Shown: piece after piece, positions 11,473 to 26,228 of the stretch | Numbering within the stretch: position 1 is the first letter of the stretch | Layout: every line of letters begins with the position of its first letter | Assembly: GCA_017533565.1 (NCBI GenBank) | Contig: JAFXHU010000026.1 | Coordinates: 1,949-65,948 of the forward strand | Length of the DNA stretch: 64,000 nucleotides | Reading direction: 5' to 3' | Origin: Clostridia bacterium | GTDB taxonomy: Bacteria; Bacillota; Clostridia; Oscillospirales; CAG-272 | Made by a program: the position numbers and the translations under genes | The notes under the pieces: model-generated | Seen by the model: the letters and a program-made list of their open reading frames with translations, nothing else | Told to the model about the DNA's origin: nothing | Database searches by the model: none

Positions 11473-12264
11473 ATGAAAAACAAATCGGTTATTTTAAGCC
11501 GCACCGCAATCACCTTTCTTGTCGGAAGCTTGATATTCGCGGGCTTTGCGGTATATTTCTTCGTGACTCCCTCGCTTATGCAAACGCAAAAAACCTGGGG
11601 CTGGTTATCGGTTGTGTGCGCGGTATTCTTTCTTCTTTCCACGCTTATGGTGCCGCTTTTCTACGTCGTTGACAAAAAGGGCATTCGCATTCGCTACATA
11701 ACGGGAGATAAGGAAAATTACGAGTGGAAAAACGTTGAAGGCGTGGTTGCCGAATACGACACGCTCGTTCCCTTCATTTTCGATACCTATCGCATCGACG
11801 GTGACGATTATACCGTTTATATGTTCTATAAGGAGGGCCGTATGGAGCGCTCCGCCGCACTCGCGAGGGCAATTAAGTTTCACTCCGGGAAGGCGGTTGT
11901 AGGTCTTATCCCCGACGGTCTTTCGGCAGGTGCGGCAAGGCGCTTTAAGATTTCTTACGGAAAGGCTCCGAATTCCGACGCGGCACAGGCGGCGGAAAGA
12001 GCGGTAAGAAAGACGGTCCGCGATGCGGCGGCATCCGTAGAGGGCGCGAAGGGTGCTTCCTTCAGCTACTCCTACGTGACGAAGGACGGCGGCTGTGAAA
12101 AGCGTCCCTACGTAGATTACACCTATATTCTCACGGTAAAGGGAGAAGAAAAAACGCCCGTAACCGTCACGCTTTTGAGCGTGAAAAGAAAGGGTAACAA
12201 CCTGAAGGTGATTTTTGAAGCCGACAGGGATACCGTTGCGGCGGAGCTTGAAAAAGCGTTTTAA
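11473..12264 (+). CDS. Hypothetical membrane protein (two N-terminal TM helices, possible bacterial PH-like domain)
   Basis: 263 aa. Good RBS (AGAGGG). Two hydrophobic helices followed by a soluble domain. No family recognised. Confidence 0.55.
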   Translation: MKNKSVILSRTAITFLVGSLIFAGFAVYFFVTPSLMQTQKTWGWLSVVCAVFFLLSTLMVPLFYVVDKKGIRIRYITGDKENYEWKNVEGVVAEYDTLVPFIFDTYRIDGDDYTVYMFYKEGRMERSAALARAIKFHSGKAVVGLIPDGLSAGAARRFKISYGKAPNSDAAQAAERAVRKTVRDAAASVEGAKGASFSYSYVTKDGGCEKRPYVDYTYILTVKGEEKTPVTVTLLSVKRKGNNLKVIFEADRDTVAAELEKAF

Positions 12265-12297: not shown

Positions 12298-12455
12298 AAC
12301 TTTTAACGCCGCCGAAAATAGGGCAAAAATCCGACGTCATCGCAAGGGAAAGTCGGGTTTAATGCCTTCGCAAGGAATACAAAAATAAAAAGCCCTCGTA
12401 CGCAGGGTTAAATTTAACGCCGCCCCGTGCGGCGGATATTAAGCGGAGAAGGGAG

Positions 12456-15050
12456 GTGCTTGCCGTGAAAAGCACGGTTATCGGAATAATCGCTCACGTT
12501 GACGCGGGTAAAACCACGCTTTCGGAGGCTATGCTATATACGTCGGGCGCGGTTGACAGGCTTGGCAGGGTTGATAAGGCAAGCACGCATCTCGACACGC
12601 ACGCGCTCGAGCGAGAGCGCGGAATTACCGTTTTCTCCTCGCAGGCGGAGTTTACCGCGGGGAATACTAACGTTACCCTTATCGACACGCCCGGGCATAT
12701 CGACTTTTCCTGTGAAACCGAGCGCACCCTCGCCGTGGAGGATTACGCCGTGCTTGTCGTAAGCGCGACCGACGGTGTTACAGCGCATACCAAAACGCTT
12801 TGGCGGCTGCTTTCCGCGCGGAAAATCCCCACCTTTATTTTCGTAAACAAAACCGACCTTTCGACACGTCTGCGCCGCGAGCTTCGCGACGAGCTTCGCA
12901 CCGCCCTTTCGCCGAGGTGCGTGGATTTTATTGCGGAGGGGACGGAGGAATTTTACGAGGACGTCGCATCCTCCTCCGAGCGTCTTATGGAGAAATATTT
13001 TAACACGGGTGCGGTGGAACCGTCGGATATTGCCGAGGCTATACTCTCGCGAAGGATATTTCCCTGCTTCTTCGGGTCGGCTCTTAAGCTCTCGGGAGTG
13101 AGGGAGCTTTTGTCGGGTCTTGACCGCTTTACGGTTGCAAAAAATTACCCGACGGATATGCTCGGCGCGCGGGTTTTCAAGATTATGCGCGACAAAAACG
13201 GAAGGCGCGTCACGTTTTTAAAGGTGACGGGCGGAAAAATCGCGACGAAGGATATTATAGAGCTTTCAACCCCGTCGGGCGCGGTATCCGAAAAGGTGGA
13301 GGAAATCCGCGTGTTTTCCGCGGAGCGAAGCCGACCCGTGTCACAGGCAACGGCGGGTGACGTGGTTGGAATTTACGGACTCAATTCAACCGCGGCGGGA
13401 ATGGGCATCGGCTTTGAGCCGAATGATACCGCAATGCTTGCGCCTGCGCTAAACTACCGAATTATTTTACCCGAGGGGGCAAGCCCCTACGAAATTTACC
13501 TCCGCCTTGGCGAGCTTGCCGAGGAGGAGCCTTCGCTCTCGCTTTCGTATATTGCCGAAAGCTCCGAAATCCGCGTAAGCCTTATGGGAGAGATACAGCT
13601 TGAGGTTTTGCGCCGACTCATACTCGACAGGCTCGGCGTTGAGGTGTCCTTCGACGAGGGGAAAATACTCTATCGCGAAACCGTGGCAAGCACGGTAAGG
13701 GGCGCGGGGCATTTTGAGCCGATAGGGCATTATGCGGAGGTGCATATAGAGATAGAGCCGCTTCCCGAGGGCAGCGGCGTGGTTGCCGCAACCGATTGCG
13801 ACAGGGATATTCTCGCGCTCAATTGGCAAAGGCTGATTATGACGCATATTGAGGAAAGAAGGCACAAGGGCGTGCTTGTCGGCGCACCTCTTACCGACGT
13901 GCGAATTACCGTAAAGGGCGGGCGCGCACACAACAAGCATACCGAGGGCGGCGACTTTCGCCAGGCTACCTACCGCGCGGTAAGGCAGGCGCTTATGAAG
14001 GCGGAGTGCGTGCTGCTCGAGCCGACCTTTGATTTCACGATAGAGGTACCCGTGTCAAATTTGGGAAGGGTTATTACCGATATTTCAAATATGTCGGGAA
14101 GGATTTTTTCCACCGATACCGCGGGCGGACTTGCCACCGTTATCGGAAACGCGCCCGTTTTGACGGTGCGCTCCTATCCCGAAGCAATAAGGGCGTTTAC
14201 GCGCGGGGAGGGAAGTATCACGCTTACCCCCGCGGGCTATGCTCCCGCACATAACAGCGAGTCGGTTATTGCCGAGATTGGCTATAACGCGGAGCTTGAC
14301 GAAAGGCATCCCGCAGGCTCGGTTTTCTGTCGCGCGGGGGCGGGATACTCCGTGCCGTGGTATGAGGCTGACGAGAAAATGCACGCCCCGCCGCAGGACG
14401 AAGGTGGCGCGGCGGACGGCGAGGACGGCGAAATTCCCGCAAGAGCAAGGGCGGTCAAATACGGCGGCACGCTCGAGGAGGATAAGGAGCTTATGCGTAT
14501 TTTCGAGGCAACCTACGGCAAGCCGAAAAAGCGTACCGTCGGGCAAGGGCGTGTAAACTCCGCCACGGAGCAAAAGCCGAAAGCACCCAAAAAGCAGGTG
14601 CGCCGCGGCGAGGACTACGTAATTATCGACGGATACAACGTTATTCACGCCTGGGGAGAATTAAAGGCGGCAAGCGAGATTGATTTTTCGCTCGCAAGAG
14701 AGGCACTGATTCGCCTTATGTGCAGCTATTCTGCATTTAAAAGATGTAACGTTATTATCGTTTTCGACGCCTATATGGTAAAGGACGGAAGGGGAAGCAC
14801 CGAAAAATACGGAGGCGTCACCGTCGTTTATACAAGAGAAAGACAGACCGCCGATGCGTTTATCGAGCGCGCGACCTACGAAATGGCGGAGGATAATTAC
14901 GTGAGAGTCGTCACCTCGGATATGGAGGAGCAGTTTATTATTCTCGGCAACGGTGCGTACCGAGTAAGCCCGAAGGAGCTTCGTGCGGAGCTTGACGGGG
15001 TGGCTCTTGAAATAGAGGAAGCCATTGAAAAATACAAAAAGAAAAGATAA
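12456..15050 (+). CDS. Translational GTPase (EF-G/Tet(M)-like, five domains) fused to a C-terminal Rae1/YacP-type NYN endoribonuclease domain
   Basis: G1 AHVDAGKTT, G3 DTPGH, G4 NKTD. The C-terminal 150 aa or so (YVIIDGYNVIHAW...IVFDAY...VVTSDMEEQFI) is collinear with B. subtilis YacP/Rae1. The alternative GTG start at 12465 has better RBS spacing. Confidence 0.85.
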   Translation: MLAVKSTVIGIIAHVDAGKTTLSEAMLYTSGAVDRLGRVDKASTHLDTHALERERGITVFSSQAEFTAGNTNVTLIDTPGHIDFSCETERTLAVEDYAVLVVSATDGVTAHTKTLWRLLSARKIPTFIFVNKTDLSTRLRRELRDELRTALSPRCVDFIAEGTEEFYEDVASSSERLMEKYFNTGAVEPSDIAEAILSRRIFPCFFGSALKLSGVRELLSGLDRFTVAKNYPTDMLGARVFKIMRDKNGRRVTFLKVTGGKIATKDIIELSTPSGAVSEKVEEIRVFSAERSRPVSQATAGDVVGIYGLNSTAAGMGIGFEPNDTAMLAPALNYRIILPEGASPYEIYLRLGELAEEEPSLSLSYIAESSEIRVSLMGEIQLEVLRRLILDRLGVEVSFDEGKILYRETVASTVRGAGHFEPIGHYAEVHIEIEPLPEGSGVVAATDCDRDILALNWQRLIMTHIEERRHKGVLVGAPLTDVRITVKGGRAHNKHTEGGDFRQATYRAVRQALMKAECVLLEPTFDFTIEVPVSNLGRVITDISNMSGRIFSTDTAGGLATVIGNAPVLTVRSYPEAIRAFTRGEGSITLTPAGYAPAHNSESVIAEIGYNAELDERHPAGSVFCRAGAGYSVPWYEADEKMHAPPQDEGGAADGEDGEIPARARAVKYGGTLEEDKELMRIFEATYGKPKKRTVGQGRVNSATEQKPKAPKKQVRRGEDYVIIDGYNVIHAWGELKAASEIDFSLAREALIRLMCSYSAFKRCNVIIVFDAYMVKDGRGSTEKYGGVTVVYTRERQTADAFIERATYEMAEDNYVRVVTSDMEEQFIILGNGAYRVSPKELRAELDGVALEIEEAIEKYKKKR

Positions 15051-15062
15051 TTTTTGAATTTT

Positions 15063-15099
15063 AAAAAGGGGCGGCGGTAAGCGCAGCCCCTTTGATTTT
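15063..15099 (+). terminator. Intrinsic terminator after the GTPase-NYN gene
   Basis: AAAGGGGC...GCCCCTTT stem followed by TTGATTTT. Confidence 0.6.
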
Positions 15100-15108
15100 A
15101 ATAAGAAA

Positions 15109-15147
15109 ACCCCGCCCCGTGTTAAATTACGGGGCGGGGCGCTTTTT
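15109..15147. terminator. Bidirectional hairpin terminator between convergent genes
   Basis: ACCCCGCCCCG / CGGGGCGGGG stem, A-run on the left and T-run on the right. Confidence 0.7.
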
Positions 15148-15193: not shown

Positions 15194-17530
15194 TTATTCC
15201 TCCTGCCAGCTCTCCATCGGGATAACGGCTGTATAGCCGTTTTCCTCAATCGGCTCTATGACGAGGGCGGAGGATATTTTGCTCGTACCGCCGTGCGTTA
15301 CGACAAGGCGGGAATATTCGCTTCTGTCGTTTTCTCCCTCAAAGCTTCGGGTGGTGGGTAACAGGAAGTCGTAGCAATCGCGAACCGAAAGGCTTCCGTC
15401 GCCGACAAGGGTGACCTTTATTTGCTGTCCGTCCCTGTGCGTCATTACGCAGGTTCGTCCGTCAAGCTCCGCGGTAATCTCCGCGCTCTTGAAATGTGCA
15501 ACCGCGTATGCGCGCTCGGGTGCGGTAAGCTCCAGCTCGTCCTGTATTACGAGCGTTTTTCTATCGTTTGTGAGAAGCATTCCGCGCCTCGCAAAGCCAA
15601 CCTTATCCTCGTAAACCGTGCCGTTATCTATTACGGCAAAGGCGTTTTTGCCCGAATGGTGACGGGTGATTTTACCCGTACAGTTACCGCCCTGTCCGTA
15701 ATCTACCGAGGGAAGCGATAGAACGTTATTGCCCTCCGCGCACCGCTTGTAAAGGTGGTAGTTTCCGAAATATCCCTCTTTAATATTGTAGTAGTCCGCG
15801 CCGAGGTCGGTAAACCAAAGCACTCCGAAATTGTGATAGACGAACGAGCCTGAATCAAGCTGGTTGTGGCTTCCGCCGACGGGGTTGTAGCCTCCCATAA
15901 TTCCCGCGTAAAGCTTTCCCGACTCCCAGCCGTCCCTTACGACGAGGGCGTCGATGCCCTCCATAAAATAATCAAGCTCAAGGGAGGTGAGCGCGGGGAC
16001 CTCGTTTCCTCTTACCGCGGGGTGGTAGAGAAGGTCGTAAAGGCTTGCCTTTTTACCTCTTTTGATATGGTCCTCGCGGAGCGCGTAGAGCATACAGTCA
16101 CCCGAAACGGTGGCAAACATATTGAAAATAGAGGTATCCTGCTTGGAGGTGTGACCGTCGTGGTAGCTCCAGCCGACGAAATCGTTTGACTCCGAGTTGA
16201 GTGCGTAGTAGCAGGTCTTGTCAAGTCCGAGCGAGAGCGAGAGTCCGAGGTCGGTGCCGAGGGCATCGTAAATTGCAGCAATAGCACGGAAAAGCGAGGC
16301 TGTGCCGTATGCCCAATAGGTGTTGGACTCCACGTAAGAGCCGTCGGGACAGTATTGCATAAGCACAAGCTCTCCCGCGGTAAGGTAGGCAAGGCAGGCG
16401 CCGAGCGTTTCCTTTATAACCGCCTGCTCTCCCTCGGTGAATACAGGCTTTGTCTGCTCGGAAAGCATAGCGAGGCAGGCAACCGTAAGACCGCCCGTGC
16501 ATACCGCATTCCAGTTGTCGGGCTTGTGCTTAAATCTCCAGCCTGTGCCCTGTCGCGCGGACGGATAGGTGGAGGTGTCCTCGATTATAGAGCGCCAGCC
16601 CTCGTAAACTCCGAGGCGGTAAATTCCGCGAATGATGGCACCCGTGTCAAGCTTTAGCATTTGCCAAGCGTCGTAAAGCCAGTCGTACGTAACCGCCGCG
16701 TAGCACGCCGCGCCCGCACAGTTAAGGAAGTGACCGGGACCCCAATGCTCCCAGGAGCAGATTTCCTTAATAGTATAATACGCCTTTATTGCGAGGTCCT
16801 CGTTTTTCGTAAGGTTATACACAAACGCCATTTCCATCGCCCTTTGTGCGTAGCCCTCGGCAAAGCTGCTTCGTCCTCCGTCGTCGTAGCCGTCCTCCTG
16901 CACCTTTCTCCAAAGCCTGTCGGCGAGGGCGGTGCCGTCCGCGTTTAGCTTGAAGTCGGGGCGTGCGGCAACCTCGTCCGCCCATTTAACCTCGTCAAGA
17001 AATACCTCCCGAAGCGCACCGTCCGCGCTTTCGTAAAGCTCGCGAAGCCTGCTCATATACTCGCGCGAGGTGAAAATGTAGGGGTGGCGATTGCCCCTTG
17101 CCTCAAAGAGGGCGAGAATACCGTCGGATATTCTTGCGAAAACGGCTCTCTCCTCCTCGGTTGCGGGGGCGTATGCCGCCTTCGGGTTGGGAATGCGCTC
17201 CACGTCAAAGAGCATTTCGGCGGAAGCTCTCATCATATACGCCTTGTCGTCGGTGTGGTTGACGCTTAAAATTTCGGGGTCGGGGTCAACGAGTATAAGA
17301 CCCGTGGAGTCGAGGTTGATATATACGCCCTCTATTTTCGTCGAGAACTCCGCACCGTCGATTAAAACGCTGTCCGCCCTCCATTCGGGTAAAAGCGCAT
17401 CGGTGGGGATATAAAGCACTCCGTCCCTTAATACGGGGGCGGCGGAAAGCGTTACGCGCTCTCCGTTTTTGAGCGCCTTTGCCGTGCGAAGCCTTAACGC
17501 AAGGGCGGGCTTTCTTTCGGTGATTTTCAT
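15194..17530 (-). CDS. Heparinase II/III-like polysaccharide lyase family protein
   Basis: About 778 aa. The HNQLDSGSFVYH motif and alpha/alpha-toroid-like centre are typical of the Hepar_II_III family. Start moved to MKITERK (17530), which has an AGGAGA RBS. Confidence 0.7.
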   Translation of the reverse strand: MKITERKPALALRLRTAKALKNGERVTLSAAPVLRDGVLYIPTDALLPEWRADSVLIDGAEFSTKIEGVYINLDSTGLILVDPDPEILSVNHTDDKAYMMRASAEMLFDVERIPNPKAAYAPATEEERAVFARISDGILALFEARGNRHPYIFTSREYMSRLRELYESADGALREVFLDEVKWADEVAARPDFKLNADGTALADRLWRKVQEDGYDDGGRSSFAEGYAQRAMEMAFVYNLTKNEDLAIKAYYTIKEICSWEHWGPGHFLNCAGAACYAAVTYDWLYDAWQMLKLDTGAIIRGIYRLGVYEGWRSIIEDTSTYPSARQGTGWRFKHKPDNWNAVCTGGLTVACLAMLSEQTKPVFTEGEQAVIKETLGACLAYLTAGELVLMQYCPDGSYVESNTYWAYGTASLFRAIAAIYDALGTDLGLSLSLGLDKTCYYALNSESNDFVGWSYHDGHTSKQDTSIFNMFATVSGDCMLYALREDHIKRGKKASLYDLLYHPAVRGNEVPALTSLELDYFMEGIDALVVRDGWESGKLYAGIMGGYNPVGGSHNQLDSGSFVYHNFGVLWFTDLGADYYNIKEGYFGNYHLYKRCAEGNNVLSLPSVDYGQGGNCTGKITRHHSGKNAFAVIDNGTVYEDKVGFARRGMLLTNDRKTLVIQDELELTAPERAYAVAHFKSAEITAELDGRTCVMTHRDGQQIKVTLVGDGSLSVRDCYDFLLPTTRSFEGENDRSEYSRLVVTHGGTSKISSALVIEPIEENGYTAVIPMESWQEE

Positions 17531-17704
17531 AATAATTCTCCTTTCGGCTGTAGGGTGGGCGAGCTGCCTTTGCATCCCGCCACACAGGTCAAATATAGCA
17601 CAGATACCTCGCATTGTCCATACGGATTGATAAAATATGGCATTTTACCGATAATTTTTGTGTAATATTTTGGCGCGCGTTAATAATTATTAAGAATACA
17701 ATAT

Positions 17705-23619: not shown

Positions 23620-23835
23620 ACATTACTCTGCGCAAGGGGCGAAAGCCTTCAAGCGGGGAAAGTGCGGTGAAAATCCGTCGCAACAGCCATTGCCGTTAAA
23701 GTCGGAAGGCCCGTCGCAGAGAGTGTATATATTCCTTGGGCAAACGGAGGAAGAAGATACGGGCGGCGCTTTGCCTTTGGCTTTTGCCGCTTCAATTCCC
23801 GAATGCCCTCTTTATGCAAAGGGGGCTTTTTGTTT
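23620..23835 (+). promoter_or_regulatory. Cobalamin-riboswitch-like leader with terminator
   Basis: GGGGAAAGTGCGGTGAAAATCCG core (23654-23678). GCCATTG...CGGAAGGC resembles the GCCACTG...GGGAAGGC pairing. Terminator GCCCTCTTT/AAAGGGGGC plus a T-run at 23805-23831. Confidence 0.5.
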
Positions 23836-23870
23836 GTCCGGATGCTGTTAAAAAAAGAAAGGAGAAAAAA

Positions 23871-24365
23871 ATGAAAACAGCAACGACCGGACGGAGAAGA
23901 ATTTTTGGCGTTATAGCTTCTCTGTTGATTCTCGTATTAACGCTTTCGGCACTTATCGGCTGCCAAAACAAGGGAGGCGACGTTGCCGACTCCGGCACTG
24001 CTACCGTGGTTGTAGCGGTGGGAGAGGACGTGCGCTCCTATGAAATTCCGCTCGACAAGCTTGACGGTGAAAAGGGGGCAATCGTCCTTCTCGATTACCT
24101 GAAGGAGGAGGGAAAGCTCGACTACACCGCCGTCGATAGCGGATACGGACCTTATCTTACCAAGGTCGGACATCTTGAAGAAAAGGCGAGCGAGAACATT
24201 TACGTCGGCATCTGGACGAGTGTGGAGTCGGACGTTGACCGCGAGAGCATCTATTCTACCACGGTGGAGTACAACGGCGTGGAGCTTTGCTCCTCAAACG
24301 TCGGAATGGGAGAGCTTAACGTTCCGGACGGAGCGATTATTTATTTCGGCGAAATAAAGTACTAA
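23871..24365 (+). CDS. DUF4430 (transcobalamin-like) lipoprotein
   Basis: Signal peptide with lipobox LIGC. GGAGAAAAAA RBS. Sits next to a small S-component-like membrane protein. Confidence 0.6.
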   Translation: MKTATTGRRRIFGVIASLLILVLTLSALIGCQNKGGDVADSGTATVVVAVGEDVRSYEIPLDKLDGEKGAIVLLDYLKEEGKLDYTAVDSGYGPYLTKVGHLEEKASENIYVGIWTSVESDVDRESIYSTTVEYNGVELCSSNVGMGELNVPDGAIIYFGEIKY

Positions 24366-24385
24366 AGTCTTTATAAAAATCGGAG

Positions 24386-24928
24386 GTGAACGGGGTGGAA
24401 AAAAGAAATAATTCCTTCGTACGCGCCGTTTGCCGAATAGGGCTTATGGCGGCGGCGATAGAGTGTGCAAAGCTCGTGCTTGCGAGCCTTCCCAACATAG
24501 AGGTCGTGACCCTTTTTATCGCGGTGTTTTCCTTTGTTTTCGGCTGGGAGGGGCTTGTCGCAACTGTTATTTTCGTGGCGATAGAGCCGCTTATTTGGGG
24601 CTTTGGCACCTGGCTGATTTCCTACCTAATCTATTGGCCGCTCGTTGCGGTTGTATTTTGGCTTCTCGGGCGGTTGACGTTTAGGCGTGTCCTCGTAAAG
24701 GCTGCCGTCGCGACGGCATTGGCGGTTTTGCTTACCGTATTTTTCGGAGTTTTAACCTCGCTTGTCGATATTGGACTTTTTAGCGGAAGGTTCGATAATT
24801 TTTTCGCCCGATTTGCCGTTTATTACGCACGGGGTGCGGTGTTTTACCTTTTGCAAATCGGAACAAACGCCGTAGTCTTTCCGATTTTGTTTCACCCGAT
24901 GACAACAAAGCTTTACAAATTGAAATAA
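24386..24928 (+). CDS. ECF-transporter S-component-like membrane protein
   Basis: About 180 aa with 5-6 TM helices. Translationally close to the DUF4430 gene. The GTG at 24395 is an alternative start. Confidence 0.45.
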   Translation: MNGVEKRNNSFVRAVCRIGLMAAAIECAKLVLASLPNIEVVTLFIAVFSFVFGWEGLVATVIFVAIEPLIWGFGTWLISYLIYWPLVAVVFWLLGRLTFRRVLVKAAVATALAVLLTVFFGVLTSLVDIGLFSGRFDNFFARFAVYYARGAVFYLLQIGTNAVVFPILFHPMTTKLYKLK

Positions 24929-24932
24929 TCCC

Positions 24933-24966
24933 CGCCCCGTCGCATTTGCGTCGGGGCGTTTCTTTG
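24933..24966 (+). terminator. Intrinsic terminator
   Basis: CCCCG(T)CGC-ATTT-GCG(T)CGGGG stem followed by CGTTTCTTT. Confidence 0.5.
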
Positions 24967-25006
24967 CGTGGGAAAAAACGGTTTTTTTGCCGTTAACAAA
25001 ATGCAC

Positions 25007-25035
25007 TTGATTTATTGCTCCATCACGTGTATAAT
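25007..25035 (+). promoter_or_regulatory. Sigma-A promoter of the alarmone synthetase gene
   Basis: TTGATT, 17-bp spacer, TATAAT. Confidence 0.6.
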
Positions 25036-25066
25036 ACTGTTAAAGGATATTTTTCGGAGGATAAAA

Positions 25067-25723
25067 ATGAGAACTCTTACGACGGAGGAGAAGGAGGGCG
25101 TTTTAAAGGAAATCGCACCGCATGCCGAGCAGTATATGCGGACGATGTCCTACTTTCGCTGTGCAATGATGGAGGTTGAAACGAAATTCCGCGTTATCAG
25201 CGAGGATTTTAGCTACCGCCACGACAGAAACCCTATTGAAACGGTCAAATCGCGCCTTAAATCACCCGAGAGCATAAGGCGAAAGCTTATCAAAAAGAAC
25301 GGGGAGTTTACCGTTGAAAATATAGAGAAAAGCATTTTTGACGTTGCGGGAGTGCGAGTGATTTGCAGCTTCCTTGACGACGTATATTCGCTTGCGGAAA
25401 GCTTCCTTGGGCAGGATGACGTAAGGCTCATAGAGATAAAGGACTACATAAAAAATCCAAAGCCAAACGGCTACCGAAGCCTGCATCTTATCATAGAGAT
25501 ACCGATTTTCCTTTTTGACGAGAAAAGGCATATGAAGGTTGAAATACAAATGCGTACAATTGCGATGGATTTTTGGGCGAGCCTTGACCATCATATGCGC
25601 TACAAAAAGGACGGCGCGGTTATTACCGACAAAACCCGCGAGGAGCTTTTGCGCTGCGCAACCCTTTCCGCGGAGCTTGACGGCAGTATGAACGAGCTTC
25701 GCCACGAGATTCTCGGAGAGTAG
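25067..25723 (+). CDS. Small alarmone synthetase (RelQ/RelP-type GTP pyrophosphokinase)
   Basis: About 218 aa. RelA_SpoT synthetase motifs (DVAGVRVIC..., GYRSLHLI, EIQMRTIAMDFWASLDH). ATG at 25067 follows GGAGG. Confidence 0.85.
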   Translation: MRTLTTEEKEGVLKEIAPHAEQYMRTMSYFRCAMMEVETKFRVISEDFSYRHDRNPIETVKSRLKSPESIRRKLIKKNGEFTVENIEKSIFDVAGVRVICSFLDDVYSLAESFLGQDDVRLIEIKDYIKNPKPNGYRSLHLIIEIPIFLFDEKRHMKVEIQMRTIAMDFWASLDHHMRYKKDGAVITDKTREELLRCATLSAELDGSMNELRHEILGE

Positions 25724-26152: not shown

Positions 26153-26228
26153 TGGAGCTGCTACCCGGATTCGGACCGGGGACCTCATCCTTACCAAGGA
26201 TGTGCTCTACCAACTGAGCCATAGCAGC
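26153..26228 (-). tRNA. tRNA-Thr (anticodon GGU), CCA encoded
   Basis: The reverse complement GCTGCTATGGCTCAGTTGGTAGAGCACATCCTTGGTAAGGATGAGGTCCCCGGTCCGAATCCGGGTAGCAGCTCCA folds as a 76-nt cloverleaf: 7-bp acceptor stem, anticodon loop TTGGTAA. Confidence 0.95.

Follow-up and report, generated by a model that had tools for sequence, protein, structure and literature searches.

A clostridial translational GTPase joined by a long tether to a Rae1/YacP-type NYN nuclease domain

We analyzed a 64,000-nucleotide stretch of contig JAFXHU010000026.1 (positions 1,949 to 65,948, forward strand) from a Clostridia bacterium, assembly GCA_017533565.1; this whole stretch is called the window here. On its forward strand, one gene encodes a five-domain translational GTPase of the EF-G/Tet superfamily and, in the same chain, an endoribonuclease domain of the Rae1/YacP NYN type. 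As judged by conservation, both catalytic centres are maintained under selection in one polypeptide, and their two activities are predicted. By the comparisons given below, the GTPase and a C-terminal extension of it form an autonomous subfamily, which is separate from EF-G and from the tetracycline ribosomal-protection proteins. A sequence-only reading of the window had already pointed to the fusion. Its observation is correct; its interpretation is partly right and was built on a model of Rae1 that has since been superseded.

The architecture is not novel, because it is already in the literature (since 2015) and in databases. Atkinson (2015, BMC Genomics, PMC4342817) recorded a Tet-like GTPase/NYN_YacP fusion in ten Clostridiales species, and Matelska et al. 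(2017, NAR, PMC5499597) recorded it in "some Clostridia". Both reports record the fusion only and place the GTPase under Tet. With the same architecture and from the same group, the Clostridia, the window protein is by sequence a member of this fusion family. What is added here is that the protein fails Tet membership, that the GTPase has its own subfamily with unfused members, and that the spread is far wider. In the literature searched, which covered that on Rae1 in part, no experimental study of the function of the fusion was found. The statement in the sequence-only reading that no characterisation was known is thus sound for experiments, but the architecture itself had been described.

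The frame spans 12456..15050 on the forward strand and contains zero internal stops, both in the open reading frame (ORF) listing and in our translation of the window. It had been read as a single frame of 864 codons. The frame is indeed uninterrupted, but translation probably starts from a GTG in the same frame at 12465, which gives a protein of 861 aa; 12456 lies three codons too far upstream. We prefer 12465 because the GTG at 12456 falls within the GGAGG ribosome-binding site and because all homologues start at the matching MK. A database protein of 861 aa (NCBI MBR3681357.1) is 100% identical to the window protein. Two numberings are used below: Pfam coordinates are in the 864-aa frame, and residue positions of the motifs and the tether are in the 861-aa frame. 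The features of the protein are as follows.

12465..15050, forward strand: coding sequence of the fusion protein, 861 aa and stop (identity to MBR3681357.1; homologue starts at MK)
12477..13130, forward strand: G domain (GTP_EFTU), Pfam residues 8-225, E 4.5e-48
13167..13397, forward strand: domain II (EF-G_D2, PF22042), Pfam residues 238-314, E 1.7e-10
13503..13652, forward strand: domain III (EFG_III, PF14492), residues 350-399, E 1.1e-06, 29 bits against a cut-off of 27
13659..14006, forward strand: domain IV (EFG_IV), Pfam residues 402-517, E 7.9e-18
14010..14258, forward strand: domain V (EFG_C, PF00679), Pfam residues 519-601, E 5.5e-16
14265..14384, forward strand: conserved C-terminal extension of the GTPase (..SVFCxxGAGYxVPWxEADxxMH), residues 601-640, from conservation in fused proteins
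14385-14435, forward strand: acidic variable stretch of the tether, from conservation and charge statistics
14436-14522, forward strand: semi-conserved helix motif of the tether, D-x-EL-x-x-IFE-x-TYG, from conservation and AlphaFold2
14523-14618, forward strand: basic variable stretch of the tether, net positive in 96% of members
14619..15047, forward strand: Rae1/YacP-type NYN domain (NYN_YacP, PF05991), Pfam residues 722-863, E 3.8e-45

All six Pfam domains of the single polypeptide exceed their gathering thresholds. The GTP_EFTU, EFG_III, EFG_IV, EFG_C and NYN_YacP matches anticipated by the sequence-only reading were therefore all found on one chain. The G domain has the motifs G1 AHVDAGKT, switch-I RGIT, G3 DTPGH, G4 NKTD and G5 GSALK, and its G' insert is short. 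Conservation was assessed in two alignments, one of the 21 closest sequences and one of 76 sequences at about 42-60% identity to the window protein. G1 to G5, and with them His78 of DTPGH, do not vary among the 21 sequences and hardly vary among the 76. The description of a complete translation-factor GTPase with intact G1, G3 and G4 was thus borne out. Domain IV is the most conserved region of the protein: the mean top-residue frequency over the 76 sequences is 0.80, and 35 of its 117 positions are at least 98% conserved. Its tip carries two His-rich, family-specific motifs, GxGHFEPLxHYAEVH and AGRAHxKHTEGGDFRQATYRAVRQ.

The NYN_YacP match scores 154.3 bits against a gathering cut-off of 24.6 and covers profile positions 1-144 of 166. 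The C-terminal 186 residues align to residues 2-142 of B. subtilis YacP/Rae1 (PDB 5MQ8/5MQ9) with E 3e-23. The sequence-only reading had found this region collinear with YacP/Rae1, with three acidic positions kept. We confirmed DGYN, FDA and TSD..EQ in register and found a fourth acidic motif, TAD, in register as well. D722-GYN, FD768A, TAD797 and TSD819..EQ are invariant in the 21-sequence alignment; over the 76 sequences, DGYN, FDAY, TAD, TSD and EQ are strongly conserved, with DGYN and D768 at 98% or more. The active-site signature of NYN_YacP proteins consists of four Asp and GYN (Matelska 2017, PMC5499597), and the fused domain has D-GYN and at least four active-site Asp. It is 48% identical to residues 8-134 of C. 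difficile YacP (175 residues). Its C-terminal tail is short, with the last ~22 positions of the Pfam profile, or ~24 residues in comparison with C. difficile YacP, missing.

The sequence-only reading had called the GTPase Tet(M)-like. The protein does belong to the EF-G/Tet superfamily, but the kinship to Tet(M) was overstated. Its best-scoring NCBIfam model is tet_protect (NF012153), on which it scores 411 against a cut-off of 775. It also fails NF033148 (268 against 1100) and the EF-G models TIGR00484 (269.5 against 659) and NF009381 (330 against 583). As a positive control, a true Tet gene from a scan of viral contigs (L091) passes NF012153 and NF033148 with 853 and 1254. The fused Agathobacter rectalis orthologue and unfused relatives from Clostridium and Bifidobacterium score 389-474 and fail. 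Whole-length matches in the PDB are near equal, at ~238 bits for Tet(O)/Tet(M), the best match with ~30% identity, and ~225 bits for EF-G. When domain IV alone was searched, T. thermophilus EF-G (1.8e-12) was far closer than Tet(O)/Tet(M) (3e-5 to 1e-4). In loop III of this domain, GRAHNKHT stands opposite GLYYSPVS of Tet(M) at equal length. Loop III of Tet(M) (L505-Y-Y-S508-P-V510) is described as its functionally most important loop and is held to displace the drug (PMC4750697). His489 of loop III aligns with His573 of T. thermophilus EF-G and is invariant in the 21 sequences. Loop I of domain IV is 4 residues shorter than that of EF-G. The AlphaFold2 model matches EF-G structures in Foldseek with E ~1e-48.

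The window protein thus has likenesses on both sides. Tet(M) and Tet(O) have the same EF-G-like build of five domains; their G' insert is short, too, and loop I of their domain IV is shorter than its EF-G counterpart. However, the alignment to Tet(O)/Tet(M) ends near residue 595, and the extension of the window protein is without an aligned Tet counterpart. The window protein also differs from them in carrying a nuclease, in not being on mobile elements and in failing the family cut-offs. With EF-G, it shares the fold, all of the GTPase motifs in intact form and the His of loop III. In contrast to EF-G, it has a reduced G', invariant His-rich tip motifs of its own, and the extension and nuclease at its C-terminus.

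Unfused relatives clarify where the GTPase ends. Those found in the scan of viral contigs are 651-754 aa long and 39-46% identical to the window protein over residues 1-640. Both the domain IV motifs and the extension recur in them, and they end where the acidic tether begins in the fused protein; tether and NYN domain are both absent from them. In the examined flanks of the unfused-relative loci, no NYN gene was present. The Tet-type genes in the same scan are 30-31% identical to the window protein. A profile search identified the unfused forms in many assemblies as chromosomally encoded proteins, with 651 aa in Clostridium sporogenes/botulinum and 662-724 aa in Bifidobacterium. Their names vary: "GTP-binding protein", "elongation factor G", "TetM... 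family" and [quoted passage not shown]. In the literature, the label "group 2" is used only by genome reports. Since the unfused forms share the motifs and the extension and stop at the start of the tether, and since Tet genes are only 30-31% identical, we regard the GTPase with its extension as an autonomous subfamily on the sequence evidence. This subfamily would have gained a tethered Rae1-type nuclease or, in some lineages, lost it.

Three loci with unfused copies are described here. In two closely related loci of C. sporogenes/botulinum type (L147 395-3575 and L165 8001-11178), the unfused GTPase gene is followed after ~50 nt by a gene for an HNH_4 endonuclease of ~390 aa. Beyond the HNH_4 gene, the two loci differ: one has DNA methylases, the other HATPase_c_3-Z1-DUF4420-AIPR. 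The HNH_4 gene may belong with the GTPase as its partner or mark the border of a defence island. A Bifidobacterium-like unfused copy (L087 2717-3949, reverse strand) adjoins a lysin of prophage type, GH25-LysM-CW_7. This neighbour probably accounts for the classification of the contig as viral, and the GTPase gene seems to be a bystander at the prophage border.

The segment between the GTPase and the nuclease had been described as a charged low-complexity linker of about 60 aa. This description has to be replaced by the conserved extension (residues 601-640) and a tether of ~89 aa with an acidic, a helical and a basic part. The unfused homologues also carry the extension and end 2-10 aa past its MH; for this reason, the extension was assigned to the GTPase and not to the linker. 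From W632 to D722, the tether is ~89 aa long in the window protein and 75-144 aa (median 92) over the family. The AlphaFold2 model has a mean predicted local distance difference test (pLDDT) score of 72.8. The globular domains score 70-90, and residues 617-668 and 685-713 score below 50, with a helix (670-684) between them. From the low pLDDT and the length of 75-144 residues, we conclude that the nuclease sits on a long flexible tether, which is largely predicted to be disordered.

To establish the distribution of the fusion, database proteins and genomes were compared. The 120 closest database proteins are fused without exception (120/120), are ~860 aa long and carry PF05991, down to 59% identity. 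When one genome of each GTDB species was scanned, more than 586 stretches were confirmed, and the best 80 were analyzed as loci. These 80, all from Clostridia, cover the query end to end at 41-60% identity. Their carriers include Oscillospiraceae, Lachnospiraceae, Ruminococcus, Flavonifractor, Intestinimonas, Blautia, Butyrivibrio, Herbinix, Anaerovorax, Fusibacter and others. When the C-terminal 265 residues were used as query in a full HMMER scan, 2811 clusters (50% identity) matched at E<=1e-3, of which 249 reached E<=1e-30, and the full-length entries among the best 150 matches are mostly 830-960 aa. Several further family members are 1000-1070 aa long, and one of 1156 aa (P0145) has an insertion of ~330 residues in the G' region of the G domain, a low-complexity repeat rich in Gly, Ser, Asp and Arg.

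The nearest neighbour belongs to the same family for 44 of the 48 labelled sequences, where 25.6 would be expected by chance. The protein phylogeny tracks taxonomy, and the gene is inherited mostly vertically. Among plasmid records, fused matches occur only on large non-mobilizable ones (Monoglobus, 518 kb; A. rectalis, 252 kb), and the copy on the 252-kb record is surrounded by housekeeping genes. The scan of viral contigs yielded one fused copy only; the other relatives there are unfused copies or ordinary Tet genes. Two bins with non-clostridial labels, L042 (Alloprevotella sp.) and L064 (Thermoflexaceae), each have, on short contigs, a fused gene of clostridial type that is 44-46% identical. 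These labels likely reflect binning contamination rather than transfer.

The sequence-only reading had raised the possibility that two genes were united in one ORF by an assembly or sequencing error. A few database entries do resemble separate short NYN or EFG_C+NYN proteins. We considered these short proteins as stand-alone versions, but they proved to be frameshifted or truncated pieces of fused genes: directly upstream of the short NYN entries, adjacent GTP_EFTU and EFG_IV ORFs are present in 2/3 loci checked, and the third has 1.5 kb without called genes there. Likewise, a profile that had been built from the short NYN proteins to seek stand-alone close relatives was set aside, because the proteins were fragments of the fused gene. 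The continuous ORF recurs in the 120 database proteins and in 80 independent genome loci from other assemblies, down to 41% identity. This comparison, rather than read data, excludes a mis-join. The gene is thus, by comparison, real and intact; the artefact reading is already refuted by the comparative data, and practically no weight is left to it. The survey of fused against split genes suggested by the sequence-only reading gives the same picture: the fusion is widespread, its apparent short NYN versions are broken fused genes, and unfused GTPases exist.

In three loci, the fused gene is distributed over two or three ORFs (L081 3921-6681, L082 4461-7071 and L083 4511-6549). The two ORFs of L082 overlap by 26 nt, and 1.5 kb without called genes precedes the NYN ORF of L083. 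These broken copies could be assembly indels, pseudogenes or real splits.

What the protein does was approached through Rae1. With B. subtilis Rae1/YacP, the fused domain shares the NYN_YacP signature (D-GYN, four Asp and TSD..EQ); from this likeness, the same chemistry is expected, and translation-coupled cleavage of messenger RNA (mRNA) is likely shared. Rae1 itself is free-standing and has ~170 aa; its gene lies in the cysS-mrnC-rlmB-yacP-sigH region, and its ribosome binding is transient. In the fusion, by contrast, the domain has a shortened tail, is tethered to a factor-site GTPase and lies in an unrelated, variable genomic context, so that the protein resembles Rae1 neither as a single-domain protein nor in its locus. 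The sequence-only reading took as its premise that Rae1 cuts in the ribosomal A site. That view has been superseded: more recent work locates Rae1 at the tail of ribosomes that have stalled or collided, in a collision in the gap behind the leading one (Deves et al. 2025). It has also been tied to collided ribosomes by Rae1-dependent tagging by transfer-messenger RNA (tmRNA) on collisions, and a structure of ribosome-bound Rae1 does not exist, the binding being transient (Tetreault et al. 2026, PMC13622287).

We propose that the GTPase docks on a ribosome that is unable to proceed and thereby holds the tethered nuclease by the mRNA of that ribosome for cleavage; for this proposal, which is drawn from sequence, we see an even chance. 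The GTP form would dock at the factor-binding site of a stalled or otherwise non-advancing ribosome, and the highly conserved tip of domain IV would probe the decoding centre. Docking would keep the nuclease at a high local concentration near the mRNA of that ribosome, and the cut would be made on or beside the ribosome. In EF-G/Tet-type factors, domain IV itself fills the A site. The tethered domain would therefore act outside the A site, and the most economical geometry would be a cut where the mRNA enters the bound ribosome; when ribosomes have collided, this place corresponds to the gap behind the leading one. The truncated mRNA would then enter rescue by tmRNA, and GTP hydrolysis would release the factor. 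The fusion would be a hard-wired version of the recruitment of Rae1. The earlier idea of a GTPase that licenses an A-site nuclease is sensible as far as a ribosome-targeted nuclease is concerned, but delivery to the A site is sterically awkward when domain IV occupies it. A functional analogy may be drawn with SmrB of E. coli and Cue2 of yeast, in which a nuclease at stalled or collided ribosomes starts rescue. However, their SMR fold is unrelated, and it is the disome interface or ubiquitin that recruits them instead of a factor-site GTPase.

Several points weigh against this proposal. Ribosome binding, GTP hydrolysis, RNA cleavage and the substrate are all inferred, and the mechanism rests on homology. 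Rae1 cuts at the tail of the ribosome, a long way from where factors bind on that ribosome; under the model, the nuclease would have to reach far or act across two collided ribosomes. The unfused members show that the GTPase functions without an attached nuclease, and the nuclease may serve that function in a way outside the present model. Neither the neighbours in the 80 loci nor the leader yielded an independent clue to the function. Finally, the fusion may be the Rae1 of its lineage or a specialised paralogue, which hinges on co-occurrence with a stand-alone Rae1; a second, stand-alone NYN gene was absent from the 64-kb window and from the 80 loci (~20 kb around each match). In a more specific form, the protein would be a GTP-gated mRNA nuclease of the factor site, in which the GTPase senses the blocked ribosome and licenses the NYN domain; it would be the hard-wired variant, in clostridia, of the Rae1 collision/no-go pathway. 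The unfused GTPase of Clostridium sensu stricto and Bifidobacterium would do this work with a separate nuclease or otherwise. We put this form forward tentatively, at somewhat less than an even chance.

Other functions were weighed against the same data. The protein might be a ribosomal-protection protein against tetracycline or another antibiotic, with the nuclease adding a twist to resistance, as was proposed by Atkinson (2015, PMC4342817). The product name of MBR3681357.1 at NCBI, [quoted passage not shown], agrees with this, as do the rank of tet_protect among the NCBIfam models and the marginally best overall PDB matches to Tet(O)/Tet(M). However, the scores are about half of the curated cut-offs, which a true Tet gene passes in the same test. 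Furthermore, the drug-displacing loop of Tet(M) is replaced by one with an EF-G-type His, and domain IV alone is far closer to EF-G than to Tet. Unlike mobile tet genes, the fused gene is inherited mostly vertically in varied chromosomal contexts with no recurring partner, and in many assemblies of C. sporogenes/botulinum and Bifidobacterium, its close unfused relatives are encoded on the chromosome. Resistance is thus a very improbable function. The TetM-family name, which is also borne by the A. rectalis orthologue (L085 4102-6903; 262 bits against a cut-off of 1100), is probably wrong by these scores, an over-annotation.

The nuclease might also cut ribosomal RNA (rRNA) or transfer RNA (tRNA) and not mRNA, with the GTPase bringing it to the ribosome for RNA processing or for decommissioning of ribosomes, for example by a cut near the decoding centre in damaged or idle ribosomes. 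NYN_YacP proteins were first predicted to act in rRNA/tRNA maturation, and stand-alone yacP sits with mrnC and rlmB (PMC4342817, PMC5499597). A protein bound at the factor site has its C-terminus close to rRNA, and the basic segment beside the NYN domain could bind structured RNA. Against this, the fused NYN retains all of the Rae1-type residues and is close to the canonical C. difficile YacP, and none of the data of this analysis point to rRNA; we consider an rRNA or tRNA substrate unlikely. The sequence-only reading had also suggested a stress- or phage-response effector, which as a conflict system would be an abortive-infection or toxin-like nuclease triggered on ribosomes in phage attack. 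It has been speculated that Rae1 or SmrB could act on foreign mRNAs (Tetreault et al., PMC13622287), and the unfused GTPase of C. sporogenes/botulinum adjoins the HNH_4 gene and variable defence-type islands. However, PADLOC gave zero matches for the fusion protein and its neighbours; around the fused gene, no conserved partner, antitoxin or island was found in the 80 loci. The phylogeny follows taxonomy, and the viral-contig scan held a single fused copy among unfused or ordinary Tet relatives. Because there is no PADLOC match, no conserved neighbour and mostly vertical inheritance, the phage or stress idea is unsupported, and a conflict role is hardly credible. The probability left by all these readings belongs to something else.

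The expression signals of the gene were also analyzed. Outside the coding sequence, the features are as follows.

12445..12456, forward strand: Shine-Dalgarno region GGAGAAGGGAGG, 8 nt 5' of the likely GTG (read off the sequence)
15065-15099 and 15110-15147, no strand assigned: two G+C-rich hairpins with T runs 3' of the stop (read off the sequence)

A terminator scan called 15110-15139 on both strands; the second hairpin is bidirectional and common to the convergent gene at 15194-17614 (reverse strand). A terminator-like hairpin is also present 3' of the upstream gene. With the upstream hairpin, its own ribosome-binding site and two downstream hairpin-T terminators, the fusion gene looks monocistronic from its sequence. 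In the 5' leader, TTTAACGCCGCC occurs twice (12301-12313 and 12413-12435). The second copy is the 5' arm of a G+C-rich hairpin at 12418-12435, directly upstream of the ribosome-binding site. The fold of the leader was non-significant (z = -1.8), with no evidence of a conserved attenuator, and an Rfam search of the leader and the gene surroundings gave chance-level matches only. In most relatives the upstream gap is short (median ~81 nt, 80 loci).

The neighbours in the window encode a response regulator and histidine kinase, a GNAT protein, two ORFs without assignment, an MFS transporter, a GDPD and an RlmL-like methyltransferase. The two flanking ORFs, 11473-12264 (forward strand) and 15194-17614 (reverse strand), gave zero matches in Pfam, NCBIfam or PADLOC. 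The former encodes 263 aa with hydrophobic N-terminal segments, and the latter, convergent one encodes 806 aa. When the ORFs of the 80 loci were clustered, no conserved gene neighbour was found; the recurring families are generic only (ABC ATPase, MATE, response regulator and histidine kinase), at scattered positions. The canonical yacP locus of C. difficile, cysS-mrnC-thyX-rlmB-NYN-sigH-tuf, is quite unlike the window locus. Elsewhere in the window, an AdoCbl-II (cobalamin) riboswitch was detected at 23636-23720 (forward strand; 39.5 bits against the Rfam gathering score of 36.5), directly upstream of a forward-strand run of ORFs (23736-25723). The sole tRNA in the window is a tRNA-Thr (anticodon GGT) at 26153-26228 (reverse strand).

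If the GTP-gated form of the proposal is true, this protein would be the first known case of a translational GTPase with an effector nuclease of its own, and a function would be assigned to a GTPase subfamily that is now probably mislabelled as tetracycline resistance. The family is very common in human and animal gut Clostridia, including A. rectalis, and its routine naming as TetM-family probably inflates resistome counts. A natural Rae1-type domain welded to a factor-site GTPase bears on how Rae1 finds stalled or collided ribosomes and engages them, as it points to a place on the ribosome at which such a nuclease can act. The fusion would then offer a route to trapping Rae1 on the ribosome for structural work: locked by a GTP analogue that resists hydrolysis, it could be of practical use in the capture of a Rae1-type ribosome complex.

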